From a virus: a stretch of DNA of 64,000 nt. Under the pieces are notes generated by a model, which saw only the letters and a program-made list of their open reading frames with translations, was not told where the DNA came from and searched no databases. Position numbers and translations under genes: made by a program. Location of the stretch: positions 42,135 through 106,134 of the IMG/VR virus record IMGVR_UViG_3300021170_000008. The stretch is one strand, 5' to 3'. Shown in pieces: positions 17,744 to 37,318 of this stretch; position 1 is the first letter of the stretch; every line of letters starts with the position of its first letter.

Positions 17744-18006
17744 TGGGTTGGTACGATCTGTCGATCTTGTTGAATATCGCCTGCGTGGCTGGGTTAATGG
17801 TGGTTCTGTGCTCAAGTGAAAACCGACGCAGGCTGGCTGCATGGTTACTAGCTTCGGCGCAGGCAAACGACGAGATCCGAGCGGCTAAGCTAGCCATCAT
17901 GGCCGAAGCCAAGATCAGGCGGGCCGATTTGGAGCAGCGCTTTAGATGCGGAAGTCAGTTAGAAGAATCTGAGTCTACTGAACGTCAGTTAGCACGCCGC
18001 CAGTAA
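17743..18006 (+). CDS. Small membrane protein
   Basis: N-terminal TM helix; coupled to upstream stop. Confidence 0.55.
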   Translation: MGWYDLSILLNIACVAGLMVVLCSSENRRRLAAWLLASAQANDEIRAAKLAIMAEAKIRRADLEQRFRCGSQLEESESTERQLARRQ

Positions 18007-18403
18007 ATACCAGCATAGTTTTTGCGACGCCTCCAACGGTAAAAGTTCCAACTATAGTTCCAGAGAAACCTCCGCCGACGGCTCCAATCGGCTGAGAGGT
18101 CTGTACGTTAGTACTGCTAGTCTGGAAAGCTCCAGACACTAGAGCCTGCCGCTGACTAGTTGGCGAGAACAGCGTTAGTCCGGAACGTAACGTCAGAACC
18201 GAATCTTTGTTGATTGGCGGGCTAGTCTGAGATGGAAGCTGAATGTCTGGGGCCGTCAGTAAGGCTGATAAGCTAACCGGCCCTGCTCCGCCAGATAGGG
18301 ATATGATCTGCCCCCAGGCCCGCTGAAAATTTCTATTCAATTTTCCAAGCGTAGGATCTTTTAGATCATCTTCGCTAATCTCTGGTAACGCTGGAGTTGA
18401 CAT
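17975..18403 (-). CDS. Putative virion protein
   Basis: SD GGAG before ATG 18403; in structural operon. Confidence 0.6.
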   Translation of the reverse strand: MSTPALPEISEDDLKDPTLGKLNRNFQRAWGQIISLSGGAGPVSLSALLTAPDIQLPSQTSPPINKDSVLTLRSGLTLFSPTSQRQALVSGAFQTSSTNVQTSQPIGAVGGGFSGTIVGTFTVGGVAKTMLVFTGGVLTDVQ

Positions 18404-18498
18404 AATTCTCCATTTCTTCTCCACCTGTAGTATAATAGGGGGCACTGGACGCTCTAACGTCCGATACCCCCTCACCAGAGGGCCTTGATGGAGGCCAA

Positions 18499-19002
18499 AT
18501 GGCTAAGTACGATCCTAAGCCACTTCCTGCGCTAAGAGCAAAGGATATCTCAAAATTCTGGGCGAACGTAGATCAATCCGCCGGGCCAAACGGATGCTGG
18601 CCGTGGACTGCCGGTTTATTCAAAACTGGAGGATACGGACAGATCAGGATAGGGAAAGCAAAGTACCGCGCTCATCGCATTGGGTACATGCTTCGCTATC
18701 AGGAAGACGCCTTCCCGCTTGATGTACTTCACCGCTGCGACAACCCGCCGTGCTGCAACGGCAGACACCTCTACGCCGGAACCCCGTTGGATAACGCACG
18801 CGACACTATCGGTCGCGGAAGAAGGCCACGGGGGCTTCGTGGTGCAGATGTTTCTGGATCTAAACTGACCGAGTCCGACGTAATTCGCATACGGCAGCTA
18901 GCGCTTACCTTTCAGCACAAGCAAATAGCCCCGATGTTCTCCGTATCTGAATCCAATATAACGATGATCGTAAATAGGCGAAGATGGAAACATATACCGT
19001 GA
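18499..19002 (+). CDS. HNH homing endonuclease (antisense within tail operon)
   Basis: CWPW, GYG, RAHR, VLHRCDNPPCCNGRHL..GTPLDN. Confidence 0.9.
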   Translation: MAKYDPKPLPALRAKDISKFWANVDQSAGPNGCWPWTAGLFKTGGYGQIRIGKAKYRAHRIGYMLRYQEDAFPLDVLHRCDNPPCCNGRHLYAGTPLDNARDTIGRGRRPRGLRGADVSGSKLTESDVIRIRQLALTFQHKQIAPMFSVSESNITMIVNRRRWKHIP

Positions 19003-19006
19003 ATGC

Positions 19007-20629
19007 TTACAGCAAATCACCCTGCCCACCGGACCTCATTTTTGCTACGCTAGAAAGATTCCACTTTCCAAGCCTTGGTTTGGCCACTGGCAACAGCATC
19101 TGCTGATTGATCGGCATTAAGTTGAATGCTTTGATCTGATCTTCTCCAAAACCTATGAATTCGATACGAGAATTCGCGTAGAGCTTGAATTTGGCGCAGG
19201 GATTGGGCGGGATGAACGTAGGAGTTACAAAAAACTCTGACCCGCAGAAGTCGTTCAACATTCCACAGGTTCCCATCATTTGGCCATTACTCCTGAAGGA
19301 CATAGCAATTGAGTTTAGTTCGGCAGGTGGCGGCACGGTGCCATTGATATGGTACGGCGGGATGAGAAGTTGGTTCAGTTCGTTATCGAAAAACACCGTC
19401 GGGCCAGTCCAGCTTGTATCGCTTGCTGCCCGAGTGTAGGTAATAATCTGCTCCCAACCTTCACCGAGTGGGCCTTCGTCATCAAAAGCGTTGCGCGTGT
19501 GGCAGATCGCAACGTAATACCTAGATTCGTCGGCATTTGTAAAGAAATACGGAGGCCCCTCCTCTGAATCCTCGAAGTCATAAACGGAGTCTATAAGCTC
19601 AAACGTAAAAGATGGACCAGATGCCGAGCTAGTGATCAAAAACCAGCAATTTGGTATGACCGGCGGAGCCGGAGACCAGACTCCGGGATCTATCTCACTA
19701 CAAATCGTAGGGAAAATAATTTTATTTACAGACGCAAGATACCTGGGAACGCTACTGACTGCGAACAGCGAAAACCCAGGACCGGCTGTTCCGAGCGTGG
19801 TCGATACAAGCGTATCATCCACCAATGCTCCTGTTGAATTTATCCTGGCACAGCGAAATTGCGTAACATCGGTAACGTTACTCTGCGGAAAAGTGTAATA
19901 CACGTCAGCGGTGAAGTAGAACACCCATGAAATACCGCTTCCGTCTACGCAGGCACCGACTACATCACCAGATAGGTTATGAATATTGGATGTGTTTTGA
20001 GGGCCAAATTGACCCTGGAAGATAGTGAGAGGCGAACTCCAAGAGCTTCCATTCCATAGGGTAGCCTTAACGTTGCTATATGAATCCCCAGCAGAGAAGC
20101 CTCCGTTTGTAAAATACTCATCATAGACAACTAGGAACGTAGTGGCGTTGATCATCGTCGCTGTGAACCACGGAAAGACTCTATCATTCCCTAACAGGAA
20201 ATGTGGAACCACTCCGTTTGAGGTTATTGGCGATCCGTACGATCCTAGTCCATTGGCAGAAAGATTGAATGGGACTATCTCTATTTCTCCTGTGTCATTG
20301 CGCTGATACACCCCAAGAGCGCGCGTGTTAGCTATATCCAAGATCCAATACACAAGCGATGACTGCGGGGCATTGAGCCTTGGAGCGTTTGCCGAGTCCA
20401 GTACCGTCCATACAACGCCGTCGGGGCTAGATGATACACCCATCACGTCATTATCGAAGTTATCCACGTATGGGTCGATTAAATTTGAATAAAATACATA
20501 GATATAGCCACCGTACTCTATTGGCGGTACAGTGAAGTTAGCCCCCCTATAGAAACCACCATCCCACAAGGATGGTTGCCCAAGGGATACGTGCGGGTCG
20601 AGTTGATTGACTAGATACGGTACTGGCAT
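19007..20629 (-). CDS. Beta-rich putative tail/receptor-binding protein with shared C-terminal tag
   Basis: Asp-box-like SSSPDGVVW; C-terminus shared with 20901-21353. Confidence 0.6.
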   Translation of the reverse strand: MPVPYLVNQLDPHVSLGQPSLWDGGFYRGANFTVPPIEYGGYIYVFYSNLIDPYVDNFDNDVMGVSSSPDGVVWTVLDSANAPRLNAPQSSLVYWILDIANTRALGVYQRNDTGEIEIVPFNLSANGLGSYGSPITSNGVVPHFLLGNDRVFPWFTATMINATTFLVVYDEYFTNGGFSAGDSYSNVKATLWNGSSWSSPLTIFQGQFGPQNTSNIHNLSGDVVGACVDGSGISWVFYFTADVYYTFPQSNVTDVTQFRCARINSTGALVDDTLVSTTLGTAGPGFSLFAVSSVPRYLASVNKIIFPTICSEIDPGVWSPAPPVIPNCWFLITSSASGPSFTFELIDSVYDFEDSEEGPPYFFTNADESRYYVAICHTRNAFDDEGPLGEGWEQIITYTRAASDTSWTGPTVFFDNELNQLLIPPYHINGTVPPPAELNSIAMSFRSNGQMMGTCGMLNDFCGSEFFVTPTFIPPNPCAKFKLYANSRIEFIGFGEDQIKAFNLMPINQQMLLPVAKPRLGKWNLSSVAKMRSGGQGDLL

Positions 20630-20937
20630 TAGGTCTTAGGGATAGCCGCTTCACACGCCGCAATATCCTCATCGCTTATCGTGATCTTGTGATCTGCTGC
20701 CCATTTCTGAGCCTGCTCTATTGAGTCCACGAAACGGGACATATGTATTTCAGGTATAGCTAAAATGAACTTAAGTACCGCTCCCTTTCTACTTCCTTCC
20801 GTGCTCTTGATAATTATCCCGCCACAGTGCTGCACATCTGAGCAAGGATGCCGAAACGGCACTAATCGCGCCACCTTAACGCCTAACATCATACCCACGT
20901 TTACCCCTCCGTCTCTCCAGCCGCAGTTAGGTTCCAC
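20629..20937 (-). CDS. Hypothetical protein
   Basis: 102-aa ORF coupled to downstream gene; start uncertain. Confidence 0.45.
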   Translation of the reverse strand: MEPNCGWRDGGVNVGMMLGVKVARLVPFRHPCSDVQHCGGIIIKSTEGSRKGAVLKFILAIPEIHMSRFVDSIEQAQKWAADHKITISDEDIAACEAAIPKT

Positions 20938-21353
20938 ATCCCAACTCGTGGCTCCGTCACCGGTAGCATCATCTCTTCGTCAACCTGGACTAAATTAAAG
21001 GATTGGATCTGATCTTCCCCGAAACCAATAAATTCGATAATTGAACTGGAGTAAAGTTTGAACTTGGCGCATTGCGATACCGAAGTATCGTATAATACTT
21101 CGAATATATTACCAGTAGTACCAAGGAGGAATATACTGGATAGATCGTACGAGCTACCGGCGATAGGGAAAAACTGAGATCCACCACCGACTATAATAGC
21201 CCCACGGCCAGACCCTATATTGGCGTCTCCGACCCTTGTGTCCGAGTTACCGATACTGGATTGAATCTGAATCCAGGAAGCTAATACGGAGATCGAAGAT
21301 AGCGGAACTTTTTGCCCCGTAGTAGCCGTAACGTCGGATATCGATACAATCAC
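20901..21353 (-). CDS. Small beta-sandwich virion protein with shared C-terminal tag
   Basis: N-terminus paralogous to 24796-25095; C-terminus paralogous to 19007-20629. Confidence 0.7.
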   Translation of the reverse strand: MIVSISDVTATTGQKVPLSSISVLASWIQIQSSIGNSDTRVGDANIGSGRGAIIVGGGSQFFPIAGSSYDLSSIFLLGTTGNIFEVLYDTSVSQCAKFKLYSSSIIEFIGFGEDQIQSFNLVQVDEEMMLPVTEPRVGMWNLTAAGETEG

Positions 21354-21365
21354 AGTAGAGGTCTT

Positions 21366-21650
21366 TCATTGCTTCGTATCTGGCTTTGCGTCCTGCTTAG
21401 ATTGAGTAGGCGCAGGCGGCAGAGCTAGCGTACATACCGGTTCCTGGAATTGGTCTATTTGCAAAACCATTCCGCGAGTCTGGCAATCCGCAATCTTTAC
21501 CTTCAGGTGATCCTCACGTTCCTGCTGAGCTTTGCGGAGATTGGCCGTTAGGCGATGATATTCGCGAAGCCATTGTGCGTCAGATTTTTGCTGTGATGTT
21601 TCCGCTAGAATTAGCGTAGCTAGGCAAGCCATAGCGAGTATTATTTTCAT
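21366..21650 (-). CDS. Secreted small protein
   Basis: Signal peptide MKIILAMACLATLILA. Confidence 0.65.
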   Translation of the reverse strand: MKIILAMACLATLILAETSQQKSDAQWLREYHRLTANLRKAQQEREDHLKVKIADCQTRGMVLQIDQFQEPVCTLALPPAPTQSKQDAKPDTKQ

Positions 21651-21738
21651 GGATTTATTTTACACCATAGCCTCTTCCCTGAATATTATCCTACGCCGAT
21701 GTTCTGGCGTTTTGCAAACCCGTCTAACCTGGATAGAC

Positions 21739-22767
21739 TCATGGGGTGTTACTCGTCATCCCCTCGATTGTGGTAACTAGCGTAGAGATAGGCATGGGGG
21801 CAATCGTCAGCTTAATGTGTGAGTGCCCCGTGACGGAAGTCCCGGCATTCGTACCTGTGTAGTATTTGTAAGTCGAGCCGTTGACCTCAAGATGCCATCC
21901 GTCGGCCAGCCCGCCCCCGTCGGTTGTCAGTTCATCAGGACTTGCAGGATAAAAGGTTTGCCCGGTGAAATAGGTACTCCTGTCTGGGTTAAGAGTCCAC
22001 GGACCAGCCAGCGATGTAGCGGTCCAGCGTGCTATTCCCCAGTGTGCGACCACCTGGGCGGCCCACACCCAATAGTTGCTGCCGACCTTTGCAATCCACG
22101 GGCCGCTGCATCCCGGTCCGCTGATGATCAGATTACCGGAATTGACCTTGGTCCATGGGCCGGTCAGCGCCGTGGCTGTAGCCCCTCCACACTCAAAGTC
22201 CCCGCCGTTATTTCCTTCGTAGACCATCGTCCAGGTCCCGCCGTCATTGAACATGCTGGAGTTTTCAATCGCGTCCTGATCGAAGGCCCCACTCGATCCT
22301 TTTGTCAGGACGTTTGAGGCGGCTAGGGTCCACGTCAGCCCGTCGCTGTCGGGGCTTGTCAGCACGTCCATGTTATTTGTGCTAAAATTCTTGGCGAACT
22401 CGTAAAACGTCGAGCCGTTGTGAACGATGTTCCCTCGGTGGTAATTAGTGATAACCGGATTGCCCGAATACTTGGTCCAGCCCGTCATGCCATCCGCGCT
22501 TTCCGCGTATCCTATCCCGGTCGCTCCACTCCATCCATCGCCTGAATACCACATGGCAAAGCACGGGCTAGGGATAAGTTGACATCCGGTCGCTCGCTGA
22601 AGTACTCGCGGCTCCTCAATCGAAGTGTTTTCCCATGCCTGTGTTGCTGTTAGCACGGTTCCCTGCCGAACCCAAACTGGGGCAGGGGGATCAGTGGTAT
22701 TAATATACCGAGAAGCACGTGTTCCCGTTGATAAAAAGAGCAGTAGCAGCAGAAGTAGAGCCTTCGT
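21739..22767 (-). CDS. Five-bladed beta-propeller glycoside-hydrolase-like protein; proposed ACG start with signal peptide
   Basis: WENTSIEEPRV, MWYSG, IGYAESADG..WTKY..NPV, FDQDAIEN; AGGAG 9 nt before ACG-KALLLLLLLFL. Confidence 0.65.
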   Translation of the reverse strand, partial: TKALLLLLLLFLSTGTRASRYINTTDPPAPVWVRQGTVLTATQAWENTSIEEPRVLQRATGCQLIPSPCFAMWYSGDGWSGATGIGYAESADGMTGWTKYSGNPVITNYHRGNIVHNGSTFYEFAKNFSTNNMDVLTSPDSDGLTWTLAASNVLTKGSSGAFDQDAIENSSMFNDGGTWTMVYEGNNGGDFECGGATATALTGPWTKVNSGNLIISGPGCSGPWIAKVGSNYWVWAAQVVAHWGIARWTATSLAGPWTLNPDRSTYFTGQTFYPASPDELTTDGGGLADGWHLEVNGSTYKYYTGTNAGTSVTGHSHIKLTIAPMPISTLVTTIEGMTSNTP

Positions 22768-24793
22768 ATTGGAATACTCCTGCGGTCGTGATGTTGAACT
22801 CGTCCACGCCCCCCGCCGCGCCGGTTCGAGTGTCATACGCAAAGGCTACTTGGACTGATGCGGGGCGATAACCACCCGGAAGAGTGGCCATTGTCGTACC
22901 CGCTGTTAGCGTCCCTAATGAAAGCAACCCACGAATGCACACGTTTCCAAAATTATCTTTTTTGAACTGACCGACTTGATTGCCAGATCCAAAGTCACCC
23001 CAACCATTGCTATACGATAAGCCTGTCCATGTAGTATCCGGGCCGCTGATTTTGCGTAACGCTGTACCATCATACTCAAGTACGTACACACCGCCTGCGA
23101 TTATATCACTGGCAACAAGGGCTGAACCCGTCGTATTTGCCGCGATAACGCTCTTGGCTGTGAACCCGCACCAAGCCACCGTGGACGCGCCGGTATTAGA
23201 GGCCTGAGGAACAAATATAAATTGGGCTCCAGTTGTTAGCGAGGTAGGACAAAAACTAGCAGATGGGCATGTGTATGTTGTTGTAGACCCGGTAGCATCA
23301 GCACAATAGGATAAACCGCTTATACTTACGGTCCCAGTCGATCCATTCACACTCGTCACAGGAGCAGCAGTCGCGGCAAACGGCATCACGCCACCTGAGC
23401 GCTGCGTGATCGAGTTGCTCGTACTCCCCGTTGAAGTAGTTACCGTGAAGTCCACAAACAGCGAGGCAGTGAGATCGATATTACTAGATACCGCCGTGTT
23501 GGTATCGTTAAAAACGCTATCCGGAGAAGTCGAAAGAGATCCTAGGTCAACCGTCAACGGCCCGTGGATTTCAAGATTCCCAGTTGTTCCGGTTGCCGAC
23601 GTATACCCAAGGAAATTCACGTTCCATGTGTTATTCGTGGAGTTGGCTAATGTGGCCGTTGAAGCAATCGACGCGAGCGTAACCACCGTGCCGCTTCCAC
23701 AGCCTGATACCGTGCAGAGCTTCACCTTGAATGTAAGAGTCGGAGTCTGCCCTATAGGTGTTGTATAGACACCCGCGCCGTTGAACAAAAAAGGCTGACG
23801 AAGGCTATTGAAATAACCAGACCCCAGGGTAAGTTCAATCAATTGCTGCTCAGAAGTACTATTAGCCGATACGGTTACTGGGGTTACGCTGGTAACCGAA
23901 GTACCGGTAGCGCCGCTACCCGTCCCGCAAGCGGCTCCCGCGTCCGCAATGTTGAACTTCCCTCCGCTAGAAACGAGCTTAGCGCAATCGTTATTAACAT
24001 AAGAAGCATCCGTTGGCAGCTTTAAGGATGCTGCCGCTGTGGCGGCACTCATATCTAACGTCATCGCTGATGTTCCGGTGTTGGTGCCCTGATTGCGAAC
24101 TAAGTTCGCCGTATCAGCAAGATTTGTAGACGTAAACCCGGTGAACACTCCAGTAGATATACCAGAAGAAGGAGACCCCCACAGAAGAAAATTATTCGCG
24201 GACGGAGCCGCTCCAGGATAAAGCAGTCCATAGCTAGTTACGGAGGCTGGGGCGAGTAAACTTACCGCCGTCGTCCCAAGTACTGGTAGTGTACCTTGAC
24301 CAAGGTCGAGCGCACCAGCTACGCCCGACCCAGACCCGGACGTGAGCGCCCCGGTAACAGTTAGGCTGGTGCCCGTAGCTACTCCGATTACCGGAGTTAT
24401 GAGTGTCGGCGTATTATTAAATACAGCAAGTCCGGTACCGGTTGGGTTTGAAAGAATACCAAGTAGTTGCGCTGAAGTGGTCGAAGCGAACTGACTAAGT
24501 GGGTTTAATACGGATGCTGCGTTAGTTACCTGCCCTACGGTATAATCTCCGGATGTCGCAACAACCGCTCCGGTCCTAGAAAATACACTCGACACGGCTC
24601 CGCCGCCACCGGAAATAGCACCCCATGTGCCGCTCTGGCAGGTGTAGAATGTACCATTCGGAGTTAACAAGCGAATCTGCGTGTTTCCACAAGCCCCAGA
24701 TGGGGTAGCCGTCACGAATTGTATTTGTGGGTTGTTCGGCTGTGCCAATGCCACCCCGAGCAACATAAATAGCAAAAGTGGAAGTTTTCGCAT
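22700..24793 (-). CDS. Tail-fibre-like protein with signal peptide
   Basis: VSSVFSRTGAVVA, VTSVNGSTG, C-terminal NGW..QFKKD.FGNV.IRG..ATLPGGYRP module. Confidence 0.75.
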   Translation of the reverse strand: MRKLPLLLFMLLGVALAQPNNPQIQFVTATPSGACGNTQIRLLTPNGTFYTCQSGTWGAISGGGGAVSSVFSRTGAVVATSGDYTVGQVTNAASVLNPLSQFASTTSAQLLGILSNPTGTGLAVFNNTPTLITPVIGVATGTSLTVTGALTSGSGSGVAGALDLGQGTLPVLGTTAVSLLAPASVTSYGLLYPGAAPSANNFLLWGSPSSGISTGVFTGFTSTNLADTANLVRNQGTNTGTSAMTLDMSAATAAASLKLPTDASYVNNDCAKLVSSGGKFNIADAGAACGTGSGATGTSVTSVTPVTVSANSTSEQQLIELTLGSGYFNSLRQPFLFNGAGVYTTPIGQTPTLTFKVKLCTVSGCGSGTVVTLASIASTATLANSTNNTWNVNFLGYTSATGTTGNLEIHGPLTVDLGSLSTSPDSVFNDTNTAVSSNIDLTASLFVDFTVTTSTGSTSNSITQRSGGVMPFAATAAPVTSVNGSTGTVSISGLSYCADATGSTTTYTCPSASFCPTSLTTGAQFIFVPQASNTGASTVAWCGFTAKSVIAANTTGSALVASDIIAGGVYVLEYDGTALRKISGPDTTWTGLSYSNGWGDFGSGNQVGQFKKDNFGNVCIRGLLSLGTLTAGTTMATLPGGYRPASVQVAFAYDTRTGAAGGVDEFNITTAGVFQYEGSTSAATALFINGNTCFSVY

Positions 24794-24795
24794 AG

Positions 24796-25095
24796 TTATA
24801 CCGTATTGTAAATTACCTGAAACGTATCTGACGTGGTCCCTCTAATGAATATCTGCGAAAGATCATATTGATTAGTGGATGCCGCAGGTGGAGCAAACTG
24901 AGAACCGGATGCGGATATTATGGCCCCCCTTGTGGCCGAGATGTTGCCATCGCCGATCCTAGCCGTGGCTGAGTTATTTGAGGAAGCCTGGACCTGAACC
25001 CAATTAGCCAAAACCGAAGTGGATGAAAGAGCTACATTAGAATTAGTCGTAGCTGTAACGTCAGGCAGTGATAGGATTGCCATCTGCATCTCCAA
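24796..25095 (-). CDS. Small beta-sandwich virion protein
   Basis: Paralog of the 20901-21353 N-terminus. Confidence 0.7.
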   Translation of the reverse strand: MEMQMAILSLPDVTATTNSNVALSSTSVLANWVQVQASSNNSATARIGDGNISATRGAIISASGSQFAPPAASTNQYDLSQIFIRGTTSDTFQVIYNTV

Positions 25096-25244
25096 TATAG
25101 ACAGGTATTCATAAATACTCCCGCCGTCTTGGGCATTAGCCCTTCGTTAAGTATTATCGGATCAGGATGTTTGCTGACATGCTGTCGGCGTACCGGTACG
25201 CTTAGCGGTAGGACATGGAGACATATCGGGCCGATCTCAATTTA

Positions 25245-28200
25245 TCAAGAAGTAGCCGATCCTGGGTCTGGACAAGGAGTGGAAAGCTGGAACCTATAGT
25301 TCCTGCTTTTGTTTAACACTCCGTCTAGCTTGGCTGGGAAATAGAATCTCTCAGTGTCGCGATTTGCGTGAGCTGGAAGTACTAATTGATAAAACTCAAC
25401 TGCGTTCTCCACGTAGAACGTCACGGTAAGCGGGCCAGAAGACCAGTATGTCAACCAACACTCTTTGAGAGCCTTCCACCCCGGATATCCCATATTTGTC
25501 TCAAAGCTATCATACCAGACGAGTTCCGCAGGCTCTGGTATGTAATCCAACCCGGTAGTAAAAACCTGAGCCTTTCCGCCGTTCCCAGGTGTCAGGACGA
25601 TCCTCCACAGCCTACCAACAAGTAGCCTAGGGTCCTGCTCAGAGTTCAACCCAATTATCCTCTCCCTGTCGTTGAAGTTAGTGGTAACCGTGATGGTCTT
25701 CCTGGTTGTCCCATCTGCCTGGATCTGAATAGTACACGGTACCCCGGCAGTGTCTATATTCATAACAAGATTACGCGCTACTTTCTCGTAAGGATGTCCG
25801 AGATCTGACCACTCTGTCCAAAAGAGCACGTCCGGTGGATACTTCTCGAAAGAGATTTTATACTTCCTAACGATCTGAGCATTCGCGTCGAGTGTCGTCG
25901 GCCTCAGCCTGATCTTCTTAACAATTGTTCCATCGTTGATCGGAAAAGTCACTTGCGTCCAGCTTGGACCCGTGAACGTCCCCGTAAGCGGCTCTAGGGT
26001 GAAGCTCTGGACACCCTGCGTTACGACCTGAGAGTTGGTAATTCCCGTGATTGTATCCATCGTCCAGGTATGCGGCGTAGATTTCATGTCATACCAGATT
26101 GATATTTCGTAGAGCCTTTTATCGTCCGGAGTACCTAGGTCGTCCCAATCGAAAGCTCGGCCAACCTGAATTTGGTCCAGCGAGAATACATTGAACGTAT
26201 TCGTATAGAAGTTTACGTTCGTTGTCGTTGTTCCAGAGAACCGCATCTGGATCGCATAGGCTTCTTTGCCGAAGCCGTTCTGGAAACGCTGAGGGATTCG
26301 TCTGCGGCCTTGCGCTGCACCGGCAGCCAGCGTCACGGAGTCCGTTGGGTCCGGAGTTAAGGAATAGTCGTATGTCACCTGGACATTGATCGCTCCGCCG
26401 TCGTTGTTTGTCTCCAGAACGTAATCCGCGAACTGTTTATTTATGGATGGCTGACCGGCAGTGTAGGCCGCTGATTCGAAAGCATAGGCAATGCCAGCCC
26501 CGTCGCTATAAGCATTTATCCATCCCTCTGATGTCCCAACGTCGTCAAAATATAAATTAGCCGTCGTGTTCGGTGTAAGGGTGACCGACTTAGCGATCAG
26601 TGTGTTACTTTCTACCGTCTGAGAGCTATTGATGTCGTACCGAAAACCGTCATCCTGTTCGGCATATTGAGCGGTTACAGCTACGCCACCTACTGGGTTG
26701 TGTGGGTCCAGATCTCCGATATCCTCCATCGACCAGCGGTCGTAGAGCATGTCATAGCGAAGACGATGATAAGATCCAGAGATGCCCGCGTAAACCATGT
26801 AGATACGCTGCTTGGAGTACATCATCGTGATGATGTCCTTGGGCGCGATTTCGGGCAGGGAGATCTGAACGGTACCGCTGGCTCCTGAGCCTCCTGGCTC
26901 AATAAAAGAAACAAGCGGTGTAGAGGTATATCCAGACCCACCGTTAGTGATCGTTACTGATGTCACCTGACCACCGCTTACAGTAGCTGTTGCTGTCGCC
27001 CCAGACCCACCCCCACCGGAGAAAACTACCTGCGGGGCAAATCCATAGAACGACCCGCCGCTGGTAATCGTGACTCCTGTGATAGCCCCAGGGTTATTGC
27101 TGTTGCCGGTGAGATCGATTGGCTCGTAAGGGCCTATGGTGTATCCATGAAACAGCGGATCGATAGCTTCGCTGCGCTTAACTGCTCGGCCACCAGACCA
27201 GGAATAGATGCCGTCGTAGCCTAAATACCAGATCTCATTTTGAGCCCGGCACCACGCCATACTACCGTAGAGACCACGCTCAGCTAGTGTTTCTACCGGG
27301 GATTGCATCTGTCCCTCAAAAACAGCGACAAGATACAACTTCTCCAGATTCATACAGAGTATTTCACCGTTGAACTCGGTGATGTTCATGATCGCGTTTG
27401 ACGGAGATCCTACGTTGATCTGGTCAAAAACACCGGTATTGAACTCTTCAACTGGGAATGCTTCCGGCCTGCCGTTTTTAGATTTGTACAGAACATGCGG
27501 GTTATTTTGGTCACCGGCGCAGAATACGGCATCAAAGGCCGCTACCGTAAATCTTGCTGGCTGAGCGCAGACGGCATCGCATGACACAAACACTGATGTC
27601 CCGAGAGTGGCCGCATCGGTATGATCGTATTGGAAATATGCAGTGATCGTCACCGGGCTCACCGCGATTACATATGCCGTTTCCTGTTTTGAGGTGTTCG
27701 GGGCAATCGTCAGTGTAGATCCAACCCTCAAGAAAGATGTCAAATCCGTTGTCGATAGACCAGATATTATGTTTACCTTAAAGGCATTGACCCCAATCTT
27801 GCCAGTACCTGCCGTATAGGAAACAAACGATGCAGTCAGGGGCGTCGGCAGGGTACTCAAAACAGGCGGATCGTTGTCGAAGGAAATAATCGGAGCATTG
27901 ATAATCGAAGCATCCGACTGACTATCCACAAACGTGACGACCTGTGGTATCTGGTTGATGTCTACGCTGTTGATGGCATACCCCAGAAACCTATATAGGC
28001 CGTCAGAGAAGGCACCGCCGCTGCGATAGACAGCGATAGCGGCATTGTTGGTCGTCGGCGCAGATGGGTTAGCGGGCGCTCCTGAAATCTGGTTATCCGA
28101 ACTGGAGATGAGCGTCAGCTTTACGCGCTGCCTGAGTGGAGTAACGGTATTCGTATCGAGCATGAGCGTGCATGGATTGCTCTCAAATCCAGTGATAGTG

Positions 28201-29687
28201 TTCCTATAGGTATAGGCATAGGAGTAGGCGTTCAAGGGCGCGTTGAACGATGTCGTGAAGGCATTCGGCCCGAATCCTCCGGCGATATAAATGTTCCCAA
28301 TCCAGAGAGTAATAGACGGATCTCCAACGGAGACGATCTGAAATCCGACTACATTGGCCCAGTTATACTTACCCTGACCGGCCAAACCAACCGGAAGGAA
28401 GTTCGGCTTGGGGATGTCAATCTCGGTCCAGACAGGTACGCTGGTAGACTGATCGGGACCAACTTGGGCCAATTCCTCTGCTTTAGCGGAAGTCGCTGTC
28501 GGATCGGCGATATCGAAATTACCGCTTACGCCAGTAGCGACATTAGTGGCGACTCCAGGAAGCGTCTGGGTTGCTGTAGCTAGTACCGATGCTTGCATTT
28601 GAAGCTGGCTCGGAAGAATCTCTTTTTCGTAGTAATCAGTTCCGGATGCGCTATTGACCATTACCCGGATACGGAGATCGGTGAGTAGGTCAGGCTGGGA
28701 GATGCCGATAGCCACATGAACAACGTCGTCGGTTTCATATCCGTCGTCCGGCTGACCGTCAAAATTAGCCGGTACCGGACTGACAGATCCACCCGGCAAT
28801 GGGATTACAGTTACGGTCCCAGGAGCAGCCGTGGGAGTGTCTGTTATGAATCCCGAGATGACCTGTTGGCCAGCTACCGGGGTCCCCGGAAGGTAGACCT
28901 GGAATGACGTACTCGTGGTCTGTTCTACGATCCCAAGGTTGATGGCTCCGACCTTAACTAATAGGCCGACAATAATACCTGACATGGAGACAGGAGTTAT
29001 GGCCACTAACCCAGGGCCGGTTCCTGATACAGATAAGATAGTCGTATTGATTCTGGAGTTATTATCTACAACCGCAAGCGGAGTGCCTGCGCCGTTCTGC
29101 GGCAAAAGTGTTATCTGATCAAGCCGTGCCTGTACTGGTTGCGTCGGAGGCAAGATCCCCCAGCGCTGAATAATCGTAGTCGGGATACCGCTGCCGTCTC
29201 CGCTGTTCAGGAATCCGGTATCTTTGAGCATTTTACGCTGAGCGCCGATGAAGGCGTACGGCGTACCGTTCGCGCCGGAGTTGTAGCGCGTCAGGGAGAA
29301 TCGCTGCTGGTCGTAGGTGGCTTGGACATCGGCGCAGTCCCCGGCCACGCTATGGAACGTCTGTGTGGCACCGGTGGGTGCTAGGGGACCGGTCGCTCGA
29401 AAGATCTCGCCGCCATTTCCACAGTAAAAAACATCCGTTGTCGATGATGTCCGGAGCTTATTGATGGTATGAATGAGAGACAGGCTGATCGGCCCAGTTT
29501 GCCGAATCCAGCCGGTATGAGCCGTAACTCGCCTATTCCCCGGTCGCTGAGTGATCACCCCCTCTTGGATGGATGTGATATTAGTGGCTTCCGATAGCTC
29601 CCCATCCTGTAGCTGCGCCACGTCTTTCTTTAGCACCAACCCCTTAACGGAGAATGGTACGACAACGGGATTGAACGGAGTAGGCAT
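25245..29687 (-). CDS. Large tail nozzle/stabilisation-like protein
   Basis: 1480 aa, beta-rich; follows adaptors; HVLYKSKNGRPEAFP propeller segment; repeated C-terminal sandwiches. Confidence 0.7.
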   Translation of the reverse strand: MPTPFNPVVVPFSVKGLVLKKDVAQLQDGELSEATNITSIQEGVITQRPGNRRVTAHTGWIRQTGPISLSLIHTINKLRTSSTTDVFYCGNGGEIFRATGPLAPTGATQTFHSVAGDCADVQATYDQQRFSLTRYNSGANGTPYAFIGAQRKMLKDTGFLNSGDGSGIPTTIIQRWGILPPTQPVQARLDQITLLPQNGAGTPLAVVDNNSRINTTILSVSGTGPGLVAITPVSMSGIIVGLLVKVGAINLGIVEQTTSTSFQVYLPGTPVAGQQVISGFITDTPTAAPGTVTVIPLPGGSVSPVPANFDGQPDDGYETDDVVHVAIGISQPDLLTDLRIRVMVNSASGTDYYEKEILPSQLQMQASVLATATQTLPGVATNVATGVSGNFDIADPTATSAKAEELAQVGPDQSTSVPVWTEIDIPKPNFLPVGLAGQGKYNWANVVGFQIVSVGDPSITLWIGNIYIAGGFGPNAFTTSFNAPLNAYSYAYTYRNTITGFESNPCTLMLDTNTVTPLRQRVKLTLISSSDNQISGAPANPSAPTTNNAAIAVYRSGGAFSDGLYRFLGYAINSVDINQIPQVVTFVDSQSDASIINAPIISFDNDPPVLSTLPTPLTASFVSYTAGTGKIGVNAFKVNIISGLSTTDLTSFLRVGSTLTIAPNTSKQETAYVIAVSPVTITAYFQYDHTDAATLGTSVFVSCDAVCAQPARFTVAAFDAVFCAGDQNNPHVLYKSKNGRPEAFPVEEFNTGVFDQINVGSPSNAIMNITEFNGEILCMNLEKLYLVAVFEGQMQSPVETLAERGLYGSMAWCRAQNEIWYLGYDGIYSWSGGRAVKRSEAIDPLFHGYTIGPYEPIDLTGNSNNPGAITGVTITSGGSFYGFAPQVVFSGGGGSGATATATVSGGQVTSVTITNGGSGYTSTPLVSFIEPGGSGASGTVQISLPEIAPKDIITMMYSKQRIYMVYAGISGSYHRLRYDMLYDRWSMEDIGDLDPHNPVGGVAVTAQYAEQDDGFRYDINSSQTVESNTLIAKSVTLTPNTTANLYFDDVGTSEGWINAYSDGAGIAYAFESAAYTAGQPSINKQFADYVLETNNDGGAINVQVTYDYSLTPDPTDSVTLAAGAAQGRRRIPQRFQNGFGKEAYAIQMRFSGTTTTNVNFYTNTFNVFSLDQIQVGRAFDWDDLGTPDDKRLYEISIWYDMKSTPHTWTMDTITGITNSQVVTQGVQSFTLEPLTGTFTGPSWTQVTFPINDGTIVKKIRLRPTTLDANAQIVRKYKISFEKYPPDVLFWTEWSDLGHPYEKVARNLVMNIDTAGVPCTIQIQADGTTRKTITVTTNFNDRERIIGLNSEQDPRLLVGRLWRIVLTPGNGGKAQVFTTGLDYIPEPAELVWYDSFETNMGYPGWKALKECWLTYWSSGPLTVTFYVENAVEFYQLVLPAHANRDTERFYFPAKLDGVLNKSRNYRFQLSTPCPDPGSATS

Positions 29688-30750: not shown

Positions 30751-31404
30751 CTAATCTTTCTGAACTGTCTCCGGGATGTAAAATTTTGGCATAACGGTTC
30801 CGCGCCAGATACTTGCTCGTTTCATGATATGGAGATACTGCTGGTAGTAAGCCGCAGACTGTTTGAATAGCGCCGCCGTCTCTTTGATCGTGACTACCTG
30901 GGAAGCCATCAATACCACTGGGTCAGTATACTCATTGGGGATCACAACAGTGTCCGTGTCATTCACCAGAAGCGCCGGTTCTGCTACCCCGGTCATCGTT
31001 AGAGCGGCTCCGCCGAGTGAGTCAGCAGGATGTATAGCGAACTTCTTAAAACCGCAGGGGACCCATTGGGACACCGGCAAGGCGGTGTTGTCTGTAGTAT
31101 CCCTAACCCAAGTAGCGTTTGACTTACCGATCTGGTTGGCGAAGGTCTTCTGGAGGTAGGTATCTTCGAACTGGACTCTGATAGGTATGAAGATCGATTC
31201 CGGAACGTCGTACCACACGCGCCCTGGTTCGGTTATTCCAGTGCCGACCGGAACGGTCGTCTGGATCATCCCGGTGAAGTTATTAAAGCAGCGGATACAC
31301 TCGTTGATAGCGTTAGTTAGCTCAGATTCCGCGTAGAAGAGTCGATTGTCATCGATACGTGAAAATACGCGGTTTTTGAGTTGTAGGAGCGTGACCGTTG
31401 GCAC
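30751..31404 (-). CDS. Head-tail adaptor-like protein
   Basis: TLLQLKNRV..ELTNAINE; FAIHPAD. Confidence 0.65.
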   Translation of the reverse strand: MPTVTLLQLKNRVFSRIDDNRLFYAESELTNAINECIRCFNNFTGMIQTTVPVGTGITEPGRVWYDVPESIFIPIRVQFEDTYLQKTFANQIGKSNATWVRDTTDNTALPVSQWVPCGFKKFAIHPADSLGGAALTMTGVAEPALLVNDTDTVVIPNEYTDPVVLMASQVVTIKETAALFKQSAAYYQQYLHIMKRASIWRGTVMPKFYIPETVQKD

Positions 31405-31415
31405 GTCGCCTCATC

Positions 31416-31727
31416 TTACTTCCCGATAATATCGCCGCGATTAAACGTCTTGCCGCCGGGCTCGTTCATGCGCTGCCACGATCTCCGCCGGACTTCGTTC
31501 TCGCCGAAGATGTGCCGCACAAACTCTTCTTCGCGACGTTCCCACTCAGGCTCCGCAGGCCCACGTACCGCAGCAGACAGTGGCGTTGTCGGGCTGTAGC
31601 TGGTCATGTCGTCGATAGGACTGAGATAGTCCTCGAAGTGCCGACCTGAGAGATGATCTGAGGTGACATCTGGCTTCGGTGGTTCGTATCCAGGGACAGG
31701 AGCTACTTGTGCTTTACGGTTACCCAT
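31416..31727 (-). CDS. Hypothetical protein
   Basis: ORF in operon. Confidence 0.55.
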   Translation of the reverse strand: MGNRKAQVAPVPGYEPPKPDVTSDHLSGRHFEDYLSPIDDMTSYSPTTPLSAAVRGPAEPEWERREEEFVRHIFGENEVRRRSWQRMNEPGGKTFNRGDIIGK

Positions 31728-31749
31728 AAGTATTGCTCAGAAGTATTCG

Positions 31750-31890
31750 TTAATACCTGCTAGCCTTGCGGCCCTTTTTGCCGCGTTTCTTTTTCATGTC
31801 GTGGCCGAACTGTCCCATACTTCCGCCTGATCCGCCAGCCATGCCATCGTTTCCACGGCCTTTCATGACTTTCTTTTTGCGTTTTGCCAT
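31750..31890 (-). CDS. Small basic peptide (46 aa)
   Basis: SD GAGGT; MAKRKKKV..KKKRGKKGRKASRY. Confidence 0.7.
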   Translation of the reverse strand: MAKRKKKVMKGRGNDGMAGGSGGSMGQFGHDMKKKRGKKGRKASRY

Positions 31891-31921
31891 TTATTACCTC
31901 CCCGCTATTATTATCGGATAG

Positions 31922-33079
31922 CTAGAACATCCAGTCTCCGTCCGCCGAAATTGCGTGATCTTGCTCGTAATTCGAACCCCGTACTCCCCAAGCATCGAAG
32001 TTCCAGGTATAGTCGGTCTGCGCCTTCGAGTTGTCAGCGTTAATTAAATCAGCTACCCCGCGTTCGAACTTCTGCTCGTAATCGTCGGCAGCTTTGGGGT
32101 TGTACCACGGATCGTCAAACTTGGGAGGCTGAGGGAACTTCATACGGAAAGCGTCCGCCAGAGCGCCGTGGATCAGAACCGTAGGGTTCAAGAAGTATGG
32201 CGGACGATCTCCTGGGGCAACCATGTCTTTCCACTGCTTGTAGTATGCGAAGTACAAATTGTACTGGACTAAGCTTGGTGGATAGATTTCGTACTGCATA
32301 TTCCCTTGGGCATTGGGGATATAGTCAGCCAACCAGATCGGTGAATTTGAGTTCTGCCTAATAGGATCGTTTGAATTCAGCCATTTTTGCGGAACGTGAA
32401 TGTTCAACGGTAGCGGCTGGATCGGGTCTATGACGAAAAAGATCTCCTTGATGTCGCTTGCCAGCGTCGTGTACGCCAGGACTATCTGATACCCGGCGTC
32501 GGTCAGCGTCGTCGCGCCCCAGGCGTTGTCCAGGATCAAGCCGGTTGAGCTAGTAACGCCCAGGATCGTGTAGTACGGGTTATTCGAGCTTATAAGTAAC
32601 TGAAGATTGGCCAGGGAACTTTGAGTAGCCGTACAGCCGCCGTTGTGAGATACCTGGAAATTAGCCAGTGCCTGCGTGCCTCTAATTTGCTGGATCGTAA
32701 CAATCTCCGGGGTACCAGTGGCATCGACATATAAGATGGAGTTATCGTTGATGTTCGACATCGACGCCGGAGTGAACCACTGGTTGCCTGGGCGCGTGAT
32801 TCCGTTCGGGATGATTGTATTTACGACATCGGAGACAGGCCATGCCGTGGCGGTCCCGGTGACTATATTTGAGCCCGTTGTTAGTGTGACTCCACCGGTG
32901 GTGTAGGCCGCAGGGATCGACAGAACGCCACGCGCCGCGAGTCCAGCCCAGTAGGGACGACGATCTAAGATGGTTCTAATTCTGTCGTTCAGTAAATCAA
33001 TTCCCAAAGAACGATCCAGATTTGGCCGACTACGTATAAGTCTCCCGAGCAATGTTGCGCACGTGTCCGGATACTGCAC
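31922..33079 (-). CDS. Adaptor/neck-like structural protein
   Basis: Position after capsid; EIYPP, LIHGALADA. Confidence 0.6.
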   Translation of the reverse strand: MQYPDTCATLLGRLIRSRPNLDRSLGIDLLNDRIRTILDRRPYWAGLAARGVLSIPAAYTTGGVTLTTGSNIVTGTATAWPVSDVVNTIIPNGITRPGNQWFTPASMSNINDNSILYVDATGTPEIVTIQQIRGTQALANFQVSHNGGCTATQSSLANLQLLISSNNPYYTILGVTSSTGLILDNAWGATTLTDAGYQIVLAYTTLASDIKEIFFVIDPIQPLPLNIHVPQKWLNSNDPIRQNSNSPIWLADYIPNAQGNMQYEIYPPSLVQYNLYFAYYKQWKDMVAPGDRPPYFLNPTVLIHGALADAFRMKFPQPPKFDDPWYNPKAADDYEQKFERGVADLINADNSKAQTDYTWNFDAWGVRGSNYEQDHAISADGDWMF

Positions 33080-33080
33080 C

Positions 33081-33743
33081 TTATGCCGCCTCCCACTGAA
33101 CGGTGGCTAGGCGGTACTGGAGCGTGCGGATTTCTTCTAGCGTGAGGGGATCGTTCTGATAATTGTTAAGGTGGAGAACAAAGCGATGACACCGGACGCA
33201 GGCCGTAAGACCGTTAGCTACATCAAAACGGAGACCAGGATGACTAGCGAAAGTTTTAATGTGATGAGCGTGTAGTCGCCCTCCACGCTCCCGGCAAATC
33301 TGACAGGTATAATCGTCGCGAACCAAGACCGCCTTAATCCATTCCCTGCCCTGCGTGGATTCTCTCTGTCTTTTTTTTTCTGGAGTTACTCCACCCTTCC
33401 AGTTAATATTAGCCGACCCTCGGACCTGTTCCGAAGAAAATATATTTCCGCCTGGAATAGGCCCGTACTTGGAAAATATAGCCTTACCGCTAGCTATAGA
33501 CTTCTTAAGCCTCTCGGGGCGCACATTAGAGCAACGGTTACATAAACCGAGATTTGGCTGATCTCGGTCATACTGTACGACGCGAGTATATCCGCAGTCT
33601 GGGCAGGTTAGTGGACCGATTATGCCGGTTTTTCTTAGATGAGACCTCTGTTCTGCTAGTTGCTTTCTCTTAGCCACAGAGGCTGCTATCCCGGACTTAT
33701 AGCCATTCGTCTCCGTAGTCCGTTTAGCCGAGCAAGATACCAT
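33081..33743 (-). CDS. HNH endonuclease
   Basis: NWKGG; RDDYTCQIC..HAHHI..NGLTAC..CH. Confidence 0.9.
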   Translation of the reverse strand: MVSCSAKRTTETNGYKSGIAASVAKRKQLAEQRSHLRKTGIIGPLTCPDCGYTRVVQYDRDQPNLGLCNRCSNVRPERLKKSIASGKAIFSKYGPIPGGNIFSSEQVRGSANINWKGGVTPEKKRQRESTQGREWIKAVLVRDDYTCQICRERGGRLHAHHIKTFASHPGLRFDVANGLTACVRCHRFVLHLNNYQNDPLTLEEIRTLQYRLATVQWEAA

Positions 33744-35184: not shown

Positions 35185-36192
35185 TTAATTGATTGACTGC
35201 TTGCCTTTCTCCGGCACGGCGTCTACCGTAGCCTTGAATAACTCCGCAAAAGATCCCTTTGGCTTCTTACTGGATTTTCTGGATTCGATCATTCTGCGCT
35301 TTTCTATGGTGGTAAAATCCACCGAAGTAACATACGATCCGCCCCAGAATACTTCCCGGTTAAATTCCAACGGCTCCGGCCTGACAGCGCCGGGCATACA
35401 CCAATATGCACATACCTTTTCCATGTACTTGTGAACCAAGGAGTGCTCGAACTTACGCAATACGGCTAAGTTTTCTACACGATTGTCCAACTTGATGAGA
35501 TTCAAGTGGTGAACCACTTCGTCGATCTCCAGATATCTACCAATAGCCGACTCAGCCACATAGCGGTGCTCTGACACATATCCTTCCGGATTGGCACCAG
35601 GATGTCCCGGCATCTGGATTTTACGATAACCCTGACATTCAAACCGGTAGGTATATTTTTTCCTGTTTGCCTCAAGCCTTCTGCTGGCGACTTCGGATCT
35701 ATCGATACCCAGGCCATATCGGATAATGTTGGTTCTGACGGTGGATTCGCCACATCCAAAATGCTTGCAGATTTCCCCCATGGTCTGTTTTTTATTAACG
35801 TACATCTCGTGGAGTTCTTCGCGCGGAATCTCGTGGACGACTAGCGCTGTCTCCCGCCTGATCCCATGCCTTTTCCGATAAATGGCCACAGTTACATTAC
35901 TCACGCCAAGCTGGCGACCAATTTCAGCATCCGTCAATTTTTGGTCAATATATAGTGCCCGCAGTTCGTCAGCCGTCAATTTAAACTTCCTGGGCGGAGC
36001 TACGTACGGCAGGCGGTCTACCTTTAGCCGAAGGGCGATCTCTTTCTGGATACCGTACTCCTTCAAGCGCTTCTCCACTACGCCGCCAGAGACGCCAAAA
36101 TACTTGGCGATGTGCGTCACCTTCATATTCCGGGTAATGTACATCTCCCGGAGCGTCTCTGCGGTTTCGTTGAATGTTCTTGGTCTGGCCAT
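35185..36192 (-). CDS. HNH endonuclease with three N-terminal HTH repeats
   Basis: LREMY..IAK.FGVS-type repeats; GYVSEHRYV..EVVHHLN..KLDNRVENL. Confidence 0.88.
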   Translation of the reverse strand: MARPRTFNETAETLREMYITRNMKVTHIAKYFGVSGGVVEKRLKEYGIQKEIALRLKVDRLPYVAPPRKFKLTADELRALYIDQKLTDAEIGRQLGVSNVTVAIYRKRHGIRRETALVVHEIPREELHEMYVNKKQTMGEICKHFGCGESTVRTNIIRYGLGIDRSEVASRRLEANRKKYTYRFECQGYRKIQMPGHPGANPEGYVSEHRYVAESAIGRYLEIDEVVHHLNLIKLDNRVENLAVLRKFEHSLVHKYMEKVCAYWCMPGAVRPEPLEFNREVFWGGSYVTSVDFTTIEKRRMIESRKSSKKPKGSFAELFKATVDAVPEKGKQSIN

Positions 36193-36232
36193 AATTGATG
36201 ATCTCACGTTTTGTGTGGATCGTCAAGTTATA

Positions 36233-37318
36233 TTACAACAATGAGGTGCCCACGAGCTTAGCCGAGGTTCTGGGATTAGCGCAGACCAAATTTCCAGCCC
36301 AAACGAACTGCCCTGCTACGTCGAGAGATTGCTGCGCTTCCTTGAATCCAGTGAACCCAAACTGCGCCGATTTCGCATCAGAACTGAACATTTCGAGGTA
36401 GTTGGTGTTCAAAAGTAGCATGACCCCGTTAACAGAATCTGACGGCAAATATTTGTCTACGACGACAGTGCTCGCGTTGAACTGGAACGCATTGAAACCG
36501 ATCTTCCCCACGTCCGTGCCGCTGGCGTCCATGTTGTAGCGCTGGAGCGGCTGGATCGAGTTCCACATCCGGTTGTAGCCGGTCTGCGTGGTCGTGATCA
36601 GGTCCGGAAAATCTCTTCCAAACCAAGCGTTTCCGTATGCCGTATTTACGTCATTTAGCGTAAATGGGCTGAACGACCGGTTGGTATAGGAGTTTAATCC
36701 CTGGATCGCACTAGTAGGCGTCGTCGCGCCGGTGAACACCGGGGCCGTGGTGAAGAAGTCGGATCTCGTCTGTCCGCCGACCGCTAAGAACGACTTGGTC
36801 GAATCCGTGGCCGTCGAGTACGATCCGGAGCTATTCCCGTCGTCTACCCAGGCCAGAAGTCCATCAAGTGACTTCGTACCAGACAGAGCGCCGGTAAACG
36901 GCGGTGCTACAGAGGACTGACCGTCCTGGTAGAGCGCCGTCGCGATCAGCTTAGCCATCGTCATCGAAGCGTTAGCGAACTTCGACTCGACGATTGAGAA
37001 TGCCGCCTGCGGACCACGGTTTAAGATGTTATCGATGAAGTACAGGCTGACGTTTACGTAAACCGTCTTCACGTTCACCGTTACCGCCGTGTCGGTGGTA
37101 ACGTAGGCGATATTTATAGCATCGCCCTTCCCGAACCAGTCTCCGTTAAGCTGTGCGTATATCAACGGAGACTGGATGTAGGTACCACCCGCGAATCGCA
37201 TTCTCCGGCGTCCCAACATCCGCGCCAGAAGTGGCGACTCTTTAAAAATTACATCGGTCGTTCTCTCGACGATGTACTGCTCTGTATAAGCAGTCAGATC
37301 CGATAGCGATAGCGCCAT
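36233..37318 (-). CDS. Major capsid protein
   Basis: 361 aa after scaffold; DVIFKESPLL, GFNAFQFN..VVVD, GNLVCANPR. Confidence 0.8.
   Translation of the reverse strand: MALSLSDLTAYTEQYIVERTTDVIFKESPLLARMLGRRRMRFAGGTYIQSPLIYAQLNGDWFGKGDAINIAYVTTDTAVTVNVKTVYVNVSLYFIDNILNRGPQAAFSIVESKFANASMTMAKLIATALYQDGQSSVAPPFTGALSGTKSLDGLLAWVDDGNSSGSYSTATDSTKSFLAVGGQTRSDFFTTAPVFTGATTPTSAIQGLNSYTNRSFSPFTLNDVNTAYGNAWFGRDFPDLITTTQTGYNRMWNSIQPLQRYNMDASGTDVGKIGFNAFQFNASTVVVDKYLPSDSVNGVMLLLNTNYLEMFSSDAKSAQFGFTGFKEAQQSLDVAGQFVWAGNLVCANPRTSAKLVGTSLL

Follow-up and report, generated by a model that had tools for sequence, protein, structure and literature searches.

Displaced C-terminus of a podovirus-type nozzle protein as a candidate docking tag on two downstream proteins of a soil phage

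The last 64 kb of a soil phage genome (positions 42,135 to 106,134 of the 106,134-bp IMG/VR virus record IMGVR_UViG_3300021170_000008, assembled from a soil metagenome; hereafter the window) encodes a 1480-amino-acid (aa) nozzle-type tail protein that stops just before the last β-hairpin of its final jelly-roll domain. The end that it lacks is found 4.2 and 6.0 kb downstream, in each case fused in frame to another protein, one of 150 aa and the other of 540 aa. We are nearly certain that this shared C-terminal segment, here called the tag, is the displaced C-terminus of the nozzle protein. We further consider it rather probable, with distinctly less assurance, that the tags restore the open domain by fold complementation in trans and thereby tether receptor-binding-type modules to the nozzle, each as a docking plug.

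The nozzle protein (A in Table 1) ends in NYRFQLSTPCPDPGSATS directly before its stop codon, as an initial annotation of this DNA had described. The same annotation had noticed the tags of the 150-aa protein (B2-tag) and the 540-aa protein (F-tag), had placed both correctly on the DNA, and had called the two proteins otherwise unrelated; indeed nothing is common to them beyond the C-terminal segment, in which 32 of the 48 positions from the Cys to WNL are identical (BLASTP 32/55, E 8e-24). Apart from these two, the 106-kb genome contains no copy. A search with the C-terminal third of A collected 70 homologues of 938-2162 aa, about 60 of which align with A as far as residue 1461-1475 and then run on in cis for another 36-55 aa, with the consensus pFKlYaDsSRiE....G.DQR.ay.Q..., just as would be expected had the nozzle family continued ..FKLY..IEF in a single chain. 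A itself aligns with these cis homologues up to ..LNKSRNYRFQLST (..YRFQLST) and then ends, and both tags match the cis tails column for column. Since the tags align with the cis tails, the tag is the normal C-terminus of the family, and the suggestion that it represents the missing end of the nozzle's last domain is borne out by the cis homologues.

The two copies do not behave as leftovers. Their DNA is 71% identical over 143 nt, the proportion of synonymous differences (pS) is 0.87, with synonymous sites thus saturated, the proportion of nonsynonymous differences (pN) is 0.15, and the residues conserved between the two tags are those conserved across the family. Saturated pS together with low pN indicates that the tags are under purifying selection and are not decaying relics. 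This result divides the alternative that had been offered in the initial annotation, a relic of insertion and duplication inside the gene: insertion into an ancestral gene is supported by synteny (see below), and decay is contradicted by the selection on the tags. A starker version, in which a damaged nozzle and leftover tags are without function or the contig is a chimera, is scarcely credible and largely refuted. It draws on the record being a single metagenome-assembled contig, with the only DNA run that contains it probably being its own source, but two assemblers produced the same sequence (an independent Logan assembly of the probable source run has an identical 105,910-bp contig across the region, at depth 31), CheckV puts the completeness of the record at 100%, and nine other contigs from different samples have the same architecture.

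The name "nozzle", proposed for the 1480-aa protein from its sequence, is upheld by its predicted fold. In a Foldseek search of the PDB with an AlphaFold model of residues 1-1180 (predicted local distance difference test, pLDDT, 82; predicted template modelling score, pTM, 0.73), about 31 of the top 50 matches are podovirus nozzle or tail-hub chains at a Foldseek probability of 1.0 and a best E value of 1.3e-20, among them those of cyanophage A4, SU10, the crAss001 muzzle, P22 gp10, T7 gp12, Kp9 and Carin-1; the template modelling (TM) scores of these matches are modest (0.2-0.5) because the model has multiple domains. Neither Pfam nor PHROGs names A, and a PDB sequence-profile search of the nozzle family gave no match to any solved chain. 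Among GenBank phages, only Tunturi 1 and 2, at 27% identity over 23% of the protein, match A by sequence, and both are podoviruses of Acidobacteriota (PMC11924767). The gene also sits where podovirus nozzle genes do, in the structural module downstream of the portal, capsid and tail-adaptor genes. Thus the predicted fold supports A as a podovirus nozzle protein, and by that fold the phage itself appears to be podovirus-like. With T7 gp12, P22 gp10, SU10 and the crAss001 muzzle A shares the predicted fold of residues 1-1180 (E 1e-20 to 1e-8); unlike them, it is larger and carries a C-terminal array of jelly-roll repeats. The repeated sandwiches that had been claimed for this array are weak in the protein's own sequence (E 0.03), and they gain support from an all-β model of the C-terminal region and from homologues that match the region several times.

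How the tag might sit in such a domain can be gauged from relatives in which it is still attached. A cis homologue (P0074), modelled with a 17-row alignment, has a C-terminal region of tandem β-sandwich domains at pLDDT around 90, in which the final sandwich has its last two strands (pLDDT 76-92) built from the first ~17 tag residues (FRLY...RLEWFA), the remaining ~25 residues being of low confidence. Foldseek likens these C-terminal domains to galactose-binding or carbohydrate-binding-module (CBM)-like jelly-rolls, with weak matches to parts of T7-type nozzles. Judged from sequence and from this cis model, therefore, the acceptor lacks strands that its relatives hold in cis and the donors carry exactly those strands, as fold complementation demands. 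A complex of A residues 1263-1480 with the F tag was then predicted, each chain with its own alignment and alongside three controls; it scored 0.69, versus 0.00 for the best of the controls. Among 80 solved complexes, 58 attain this mark, as do 2 of 110 mismatched pairs, counts that are rough because own alignments were used. At least 58% of the contacts were common to the runs, and the pLDDT of the partner was at least 50. In the predicted complex, tag residues NPCAKFKLYANSRIEFIGFG contact A residues 1404-1415 (WKALKECWLTYW) and 1466-1473, and LPVAKPRLGKWNL of the tag touches the beginning of the preceding domain. The F tag is thus predicted to dock on the truncated domain, and the prediction passes its controls as a model of binding.

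Whether the tag is tied to the nozzle through evolution can be read from its occurrence in relatives. Homologues of A are held by 30 IMG/VR loci, of which 27 are long enough to be judged with a tag hidden Markov model (HMM) built from ~65 tails: 18 have the tag in cis, nine have it in trans next to a tagless nozzle, none is without a tag and none has it both in cis and in trans. The nine trans loci, on contigs from different samples, form one clade whose nozzle is 43% identical to A. Their nozzle ends at the same loop as A, in ..LNKSKRKRMTIDTVAS before the stop codon, and the tag, VFKLYADGSRLEWMACGADQRSAYQQTTLSTLMAPRI up to the stop codon, is the end of a separate downstream protein that comes in three forms of 206, 365 and 687 aa, the 365-aa form being the 206-aa protein into which an F5/8-type-C carbohydrate-binding domain has been inserted (PF22633, 27.9 bits at a cut-off of 27.8). 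Each carrier form has a TTVS-repeat or poly-Pro linker ahead of the tag. As read from these sequences, variable carriers of a glycan-binding type that were docked by a tethered peptide would be expected to have such an anatomy. Docking by fold complementation, as originally proposed, is therefore supported by the tag occurring in cis or in trans at every judged locus, by a second split lineage and by the complex prediction. Other searches were narrower in what they returned: a profile search with the C-terminal module gave one viral locus, a scan of JGI metagenomes gave only cis forms, and a representative search with a two-sequence tag profile, too narrow a profile, gave only nine proteins. 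At one of the trans loci (L008:12545-13168), a family-2 glycosyltransferase gene (PF00535, E 5e-9) lies between the tagless nozzle gene and the gene of the tag-carrying 687-aa protein.

The same loci allow an explanation without docking, namely that the conserved 3′ end of the nozzle gene serves as the right homology arm for the exchange of host-range cassettes, so that the fusions are by-products of a mosaic boundary, the truncated nozzle works anyway, and the tag benefits its carrier differently, for instance by aiding the carrier's own folding or oligomerization. In both lineages the variable region does lie between the nozzle end and the tag, with conserved genes downstream; three of the trans loci (L005, L008 and L012) have tags nearly identical in DNA and protein on carriers that differ; and an HNH endonuclease gene abuts the last tag in the window. 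However, a mosaic boundary leaves unexplained why all five carrier proteins have preserved the reading frame, why the tag is preceded by linkers, why the protein is conserved at family-conserved positions despite synonymous saturation, and why no genome combines a tagless nozzle with the lack of a tag elsewhere. We regard it as an unlikely account of the whole, and as one that is compatible with docking rather than exclusive of it.

It is also of interest how often the nozzle was split, and how. In a tree of the nozzle core (416 columns, 68 rows), A groups with the cis forms P0009 and P0011 and with P0053 and P0055 (support 98), the other trans clade groups with the cis form P0062 (support 97), and at least two origins of the trans state are needed; an approximately unbiased (AU) test of a single trans clade gave p 0.044, a marginal value for a group that was named after the tree had been seen. 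The tags themselves tell a similar story, that of L005 being nearest to the cis tail of P0062 (25/35) and those of the window resembling each other most and, after that, the long-type tails of A's own relatives, so that tag and nozzle go together within each lineage. The better reading, suggested by the sequences with moderate support, is thus that the gene was split twice, separately, at the same loop. As to the event that led to the window, one relative (L034) has a full-length nozzle gene followed directly by a homologue of the 166-aa protein that in the window lies beyond the last tag (41% identity, E 5e-18), which marks the 6.2 kb between the stop codon of A and the last tag as an insertion inside an ancestral gene; in another (L035), the open reading frame (ORF) after the nozzle gene matches the 166-aa protein more weakly (25% identity, E 3e-8). 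The N-terminal 93 aa of B2-tag are a paralogue of B1, the small protein encoded directly after the nozzle gene (58% identity, E 2e-33), these being the only two copies of the domain in the genome. The pairs B1...B2 and tag1...tag2 look like flanking duplications, the trace to be expected if cassettes had been stacked in tandem through unequal recombination between related phages.

In other members of the family the break seems to lie further upstream, by one or more jelly-roll repeats, and likewise in the loop that precedes a repeat's last strand, as circumstantial sequence evidence suggests. One member (P0069) ends ..KKIRLRPK, and the nozzle-like part of another protein (P0075) begins YIVRDYKF, which is the next strand. 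For both, two contigs are on record, the longest of 40,511 bp, and they probably share that contig, the split point being drawn only from sequence complementarity and matching contig statistics. In P0053, P0055 and P0066 a propeller takes the place of everything past residue 1263, and P0073, also a propeller protein, has at its C-terminal end the last strand of that repeat followed by two jelly-rolls and the tag; P0080 begins MADFKIFGYKF, the last strand of a repeat. Propeller or immunoglobulin (Ig)-like domains are attached on either side of the break in this set of proteins (P0053/P0055/P0066, P0069, P0073, P0075 and P0080).

Another reading would have a full-length nozzle restored at expression, through DNA deletion, RNA splicing or protein trans-splicing that would join residue ~1472 to a tag. 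The many HNH homing endonucleases of the genome and the Cys that flank the break on both sides would suit such a mechanism, but between positions 18000 and 30000 there is no Rfam intron or other RNA family, the genome has neither a reverse transcriptase nor a serine recombinase, the break has no direct repeats besides the tags, and long open frames of real proteins, conserved between contigs, precede the tags. Joined nozzle-tag forms were absent from the contigs of the source run, which cannot show rare forms; a metatranscriptome covers just two short pieces of the region. Altogether, restoration is a very improbable explanation. A self-splicing intron was dropped as a candidate on the same Rfam result and on the content of the intervening DNA, which encodes seven ORFs, conserved structural-type proteins among them. 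Inspection of the termini revealed no intein-like motifs; no intein-specific search was run.

In the account that we favor, docking by fold complementation, an ancestral nozzle gene was split in the loop before the last β-hairpin of the final jelly-roll; ~6.2 kb of host-recognition-type genes now lies within it, and its displaced ~50-aa end forms the C-terminal tag of a 93-aa adaptor-like domain (B2) and of a 475-aa BNR-type propeller (F). Nozzle subunits would then be made with an open last jelly-roll, to be completed in trans by B2-tag and F-tag: the tag would insert into the incomplete domain, contributing the two missing strands and an arm that packs on the neighboring domain, and the inserted tag would tether its carrier to the tail tip. 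For the body of F, a search of predicted structures in the ESM Atlas returned BNR_2/sialidase clusters in three of the ten matches shown (TM up to 0.66 by the query and 0.80 by the matched cluster), and Pfam gave no match. The B domain may act as an adaptor; its 150-aa carrier protein has no homologue but itself in a set of 5.8 billion proteins and no tblastn match among GenBank phages. The genome has a single type of acceptor domain, and if there are six nozzle subunits, as in solved nozzles, the tagged proteins would have to share or compete for sites.

The initial annotation had gone further and viewed the tags as alternative modules of a switchable receptor-binding system, possibly Cys-linked. 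Switching found no support: the tags lie on the same strand, neither an invertase nor a reverse transcriptase is encoded in the genome, and the contigs contain no rearranged form. Display of both carriers together, or competition between them, on a multimeric nozzle is an equally likely outcome. Two familiar systems of tail variation were considered and set aside. In invertible or shufflon-type tail-fiber switches such as Mu Gin and P1 Cin, inverted repeats flank alternative 3′ segments and a site-specific invertase is present; here the tags are direct repeats on one strand, and the genome has no match to a resolvase or invertase family. Diversity-generating retroelements employ a reverse transcriptase and leave repeat copies that differ only at template adenines; here the genome has no RVT_1 match, and the copies differ at ~29% of positions, involving all four bases. 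The Cys link is best described as a conjecture. There is a Cys at the break on both sides, C1472 of A and one in each tag (Cys95 of B2-tag, Cys478 of F-tag), and several cis nozzles (L020, L023, L024, P0068, P0079 and P0080) have two Cys (CC or CxxC, as in DPCCGF and SCDDCVPF) in the loop before FKLY; Cys on each side of the break, together with paired Cys in cis loops, make an intermolecular disulfide conceivable; in the second split lineage, Cys is absent from the break.

Several considerations weigh against docking as we describe it. In effect, the two chains of the predicted complex are one half each of what relatives have as a continuous domain; a passing score is therefore expected, would partly reflect the cis fold, and speaks for compatibility rather than binding. 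Physical docking, presence in the virion and a receptor-binding role of the carriers are steps that we infer, and the roles of F and of the other carriers are leads from fold or from weak domain matches. The independence of the two splits leans on the marginal AU test, and recombination of 3′ ends could mimic independent origins. Docking leaves stoichiometry and choice unexplained in a genome with two tags and one type of acceptor. Lastly, B1 is a B-type domain that carries no tag, so the tag is not the sole means of keeping such modules.

A bolder extension, which we put forward tentatively and rate somewhat below even chances, is that of a natural plug and socket. The terminal hairpin of the nozzle jelly-roll would be a portable C-terminal docking tag, able to expose at the tip of the tail whatever protein it is fused to. 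Gene splitting and cassette insertion would recur in the loop that precedes the last strand of each repeat, with P0069 and P0075, P0080, and P0053/P0055/P0066 and P0073 as possible further cases. A second tag in a genome would let one nozzle take up two different modules, in this phage perhaps locked by an intermolecular disulfide.

Incomplete folds completed by another polypeptide are well known from chaperone-usher pili (Fim/Pap), in which a β-sandwich receives its absent strand from a neighboring chain, forming a very stable non-covalent link. In pilins a single strand of the Ig fold is missing, and the N-terminal extension of the next subunit fills the gap by way of a chaperone intermediate; in the present case, two jelly-roll strands are concerned, the tag is C-terminal, there is no chaperone candidate, and the arrangement would have originated by gene splitting. 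Receptor-binding proteins of phages are generally thought to be attached through N-terminal anchor domains or N-terminal docking peptides; if docking is true, the anchor here is a C-terminal fragment of the acceptor's own fold.

Among phages, a close parallel is the Pseudomonas podophage A1002, whose nozzle is split into a nozzle-rope (gp39) and a nozzle-base (gp42), each of which lends β-strands to the other's platform and propeller (PMC13730344). As in the window, an ancestral single nozzle has been divided over two polypeptides; that the pieces complete each other and that one of them provides for fiber attachment would, on our proposal, hold for the window too. In A1002, it is the platform and propeller core that is partitioned, and between two dedicated nozzle proteins (PMC13730344). 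In the window, by contrast, the core is whole, and what has moved is just the last hairpin of a distal jelly-roll, onto unrelated, variable proteins, two of them in this one genome; the likeness is one of architecture. Another parallel is found in the Klebsiella podophages KP32 (gp38) and KP34 (gp57), in which a conserved docking peptide attaches a secondary receptor-binding protein to the virion and can carry foreign domains (PMC13352976). The likeness lies in a short conserved peptide on an otherwise variable receptor-binding-type protein, the docking being predicted in our case, and the difference in the peptide itself, which in KP32 and KP34 is N-terminal, has ~29 aa and binds a T4gp10-like branching domain of another receptor-binding protein (PMC13352976), as opposed to a C-terminal tag of ~50 aa that is a piece of the acceptor's own fold and is proposed to bind the nozzle itself. 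The present case would work like A1002, the KP32 peptide and the pili, and it differs from them in the split at a distal hairpin, a C-terminal tag on unrelated carriers, two carriers in one genome, and recurrence. A full-text literature search found no paper on strand complementation in phage tail fibers or receptor-binding proteins.

If true, docking would explain how host-range cassettes came to land inside a tail gene, and the route of splitting a loop and using the cut-off strands as a tag may have been taken at least twice. Should binding be confirmed, the pair would be a compact, self-specifying tag and socket for protein display on phage tails, it would supply an annotation rule by which a tagless nozzle predicts a tagged receptor-binding protein nearby, and it would stand as a second, independent natural example beside the single published split nozzle, that of A1002. 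It also bears on the poorly known phages of soil, as the only cultured relatives by sequence infect Acidobacteriota.

Table 1. The nozzle gene of the window, its displaced ends and neighboring features (positions in the window)
Feature	Position	Strand	Basis
A, nozzle protein, 1480 aa, ending just before the last β-hairpin of the final jelly-roll	25245-29687	-	fold and homologues
Last, incomplete jelly-roll domain of A (~residues 1381-1480), proposed socket	25248-25547	-	alignment with cis homologues
B1, small domain protein, 99 aa, untagged, directly downstream of the nozzle gene	24796-25095	-	paralogue of the N-terminal part of the 150-aa protein
C, fiber-like protein, 697 aa, inside the inserted cassette	22700-24793	-	ORF; weak PHROG match
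D, cassette protein, 367 aa, start uncertain	21739-22842	-	ORF; no Pfam or PHROG match
E, small cassette protein, 94 aa	21366-21650	-	ORF; no family match
B2-tag, 150 aa: B-type domain (residues 1-93) and nozzle C-terminus (residues 95-150, DNA 20904-21071)	20901-21353	-	tag HMM, E 2.7e-13
ORF between the tag genes, 102 aa, doubtful, perhaps coding only in a short 3′ part	20629-20937	-	ORF list; no family match
F-tag, 540 aa: BNR/sialidase-like propeller body (~residues 1-475) and nozzle C-terminus (residues 478-540, DNA 19010-19198)	19007-20629	-	tag alignment and HMM
HNH homing endonuclease, convergent with and abutting the end of F-tag	18499-19002	+	PHROG HNH endonuclease families, E 1e-21
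166-aa protein, far edge of the insertion; follows the nozzle gene in cis-type relatives	17975-18475	-	homologues in L034 and L035
Portal, upstream of A	39381-41237	-	
Major head protein, upstream of A	36233-37318	-	
Weak "tail protein" matches, upstream of A	30751-33079	-	
HNH homing endonuclease, free-standing	33081-33743	-	
HNH homing endonuclease, free-standing	35185-36207	-	

Some features of the gene row deserve mention in their own right. Pfam gave no match for any of ten proteins of the region, and a promoter and terminator scan stayed below shuffle expectation and was uninformative. The structural module contains three free-standing HNH homing endonuclease genes (Table 1). The cassette proteins C, D and E begin with hydrophobic, signal-peptide-like segments, which are unusual among virion proteins. 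B1 ends 2 nt before the gene of C; a −1 frameshift from B1 into C was considered and dropped, as the frame of C is open for only ~45 nt upstream and no slippery site was seen when the sequence was read by hand. Small contigs of a soil metatranscriptome from a different study are 100% identical to positions 23710-24098, within the 697-aa gene, and 24641-24836, across the B1/C junction, and the phage or a very close relative was therefore present in a second sample.

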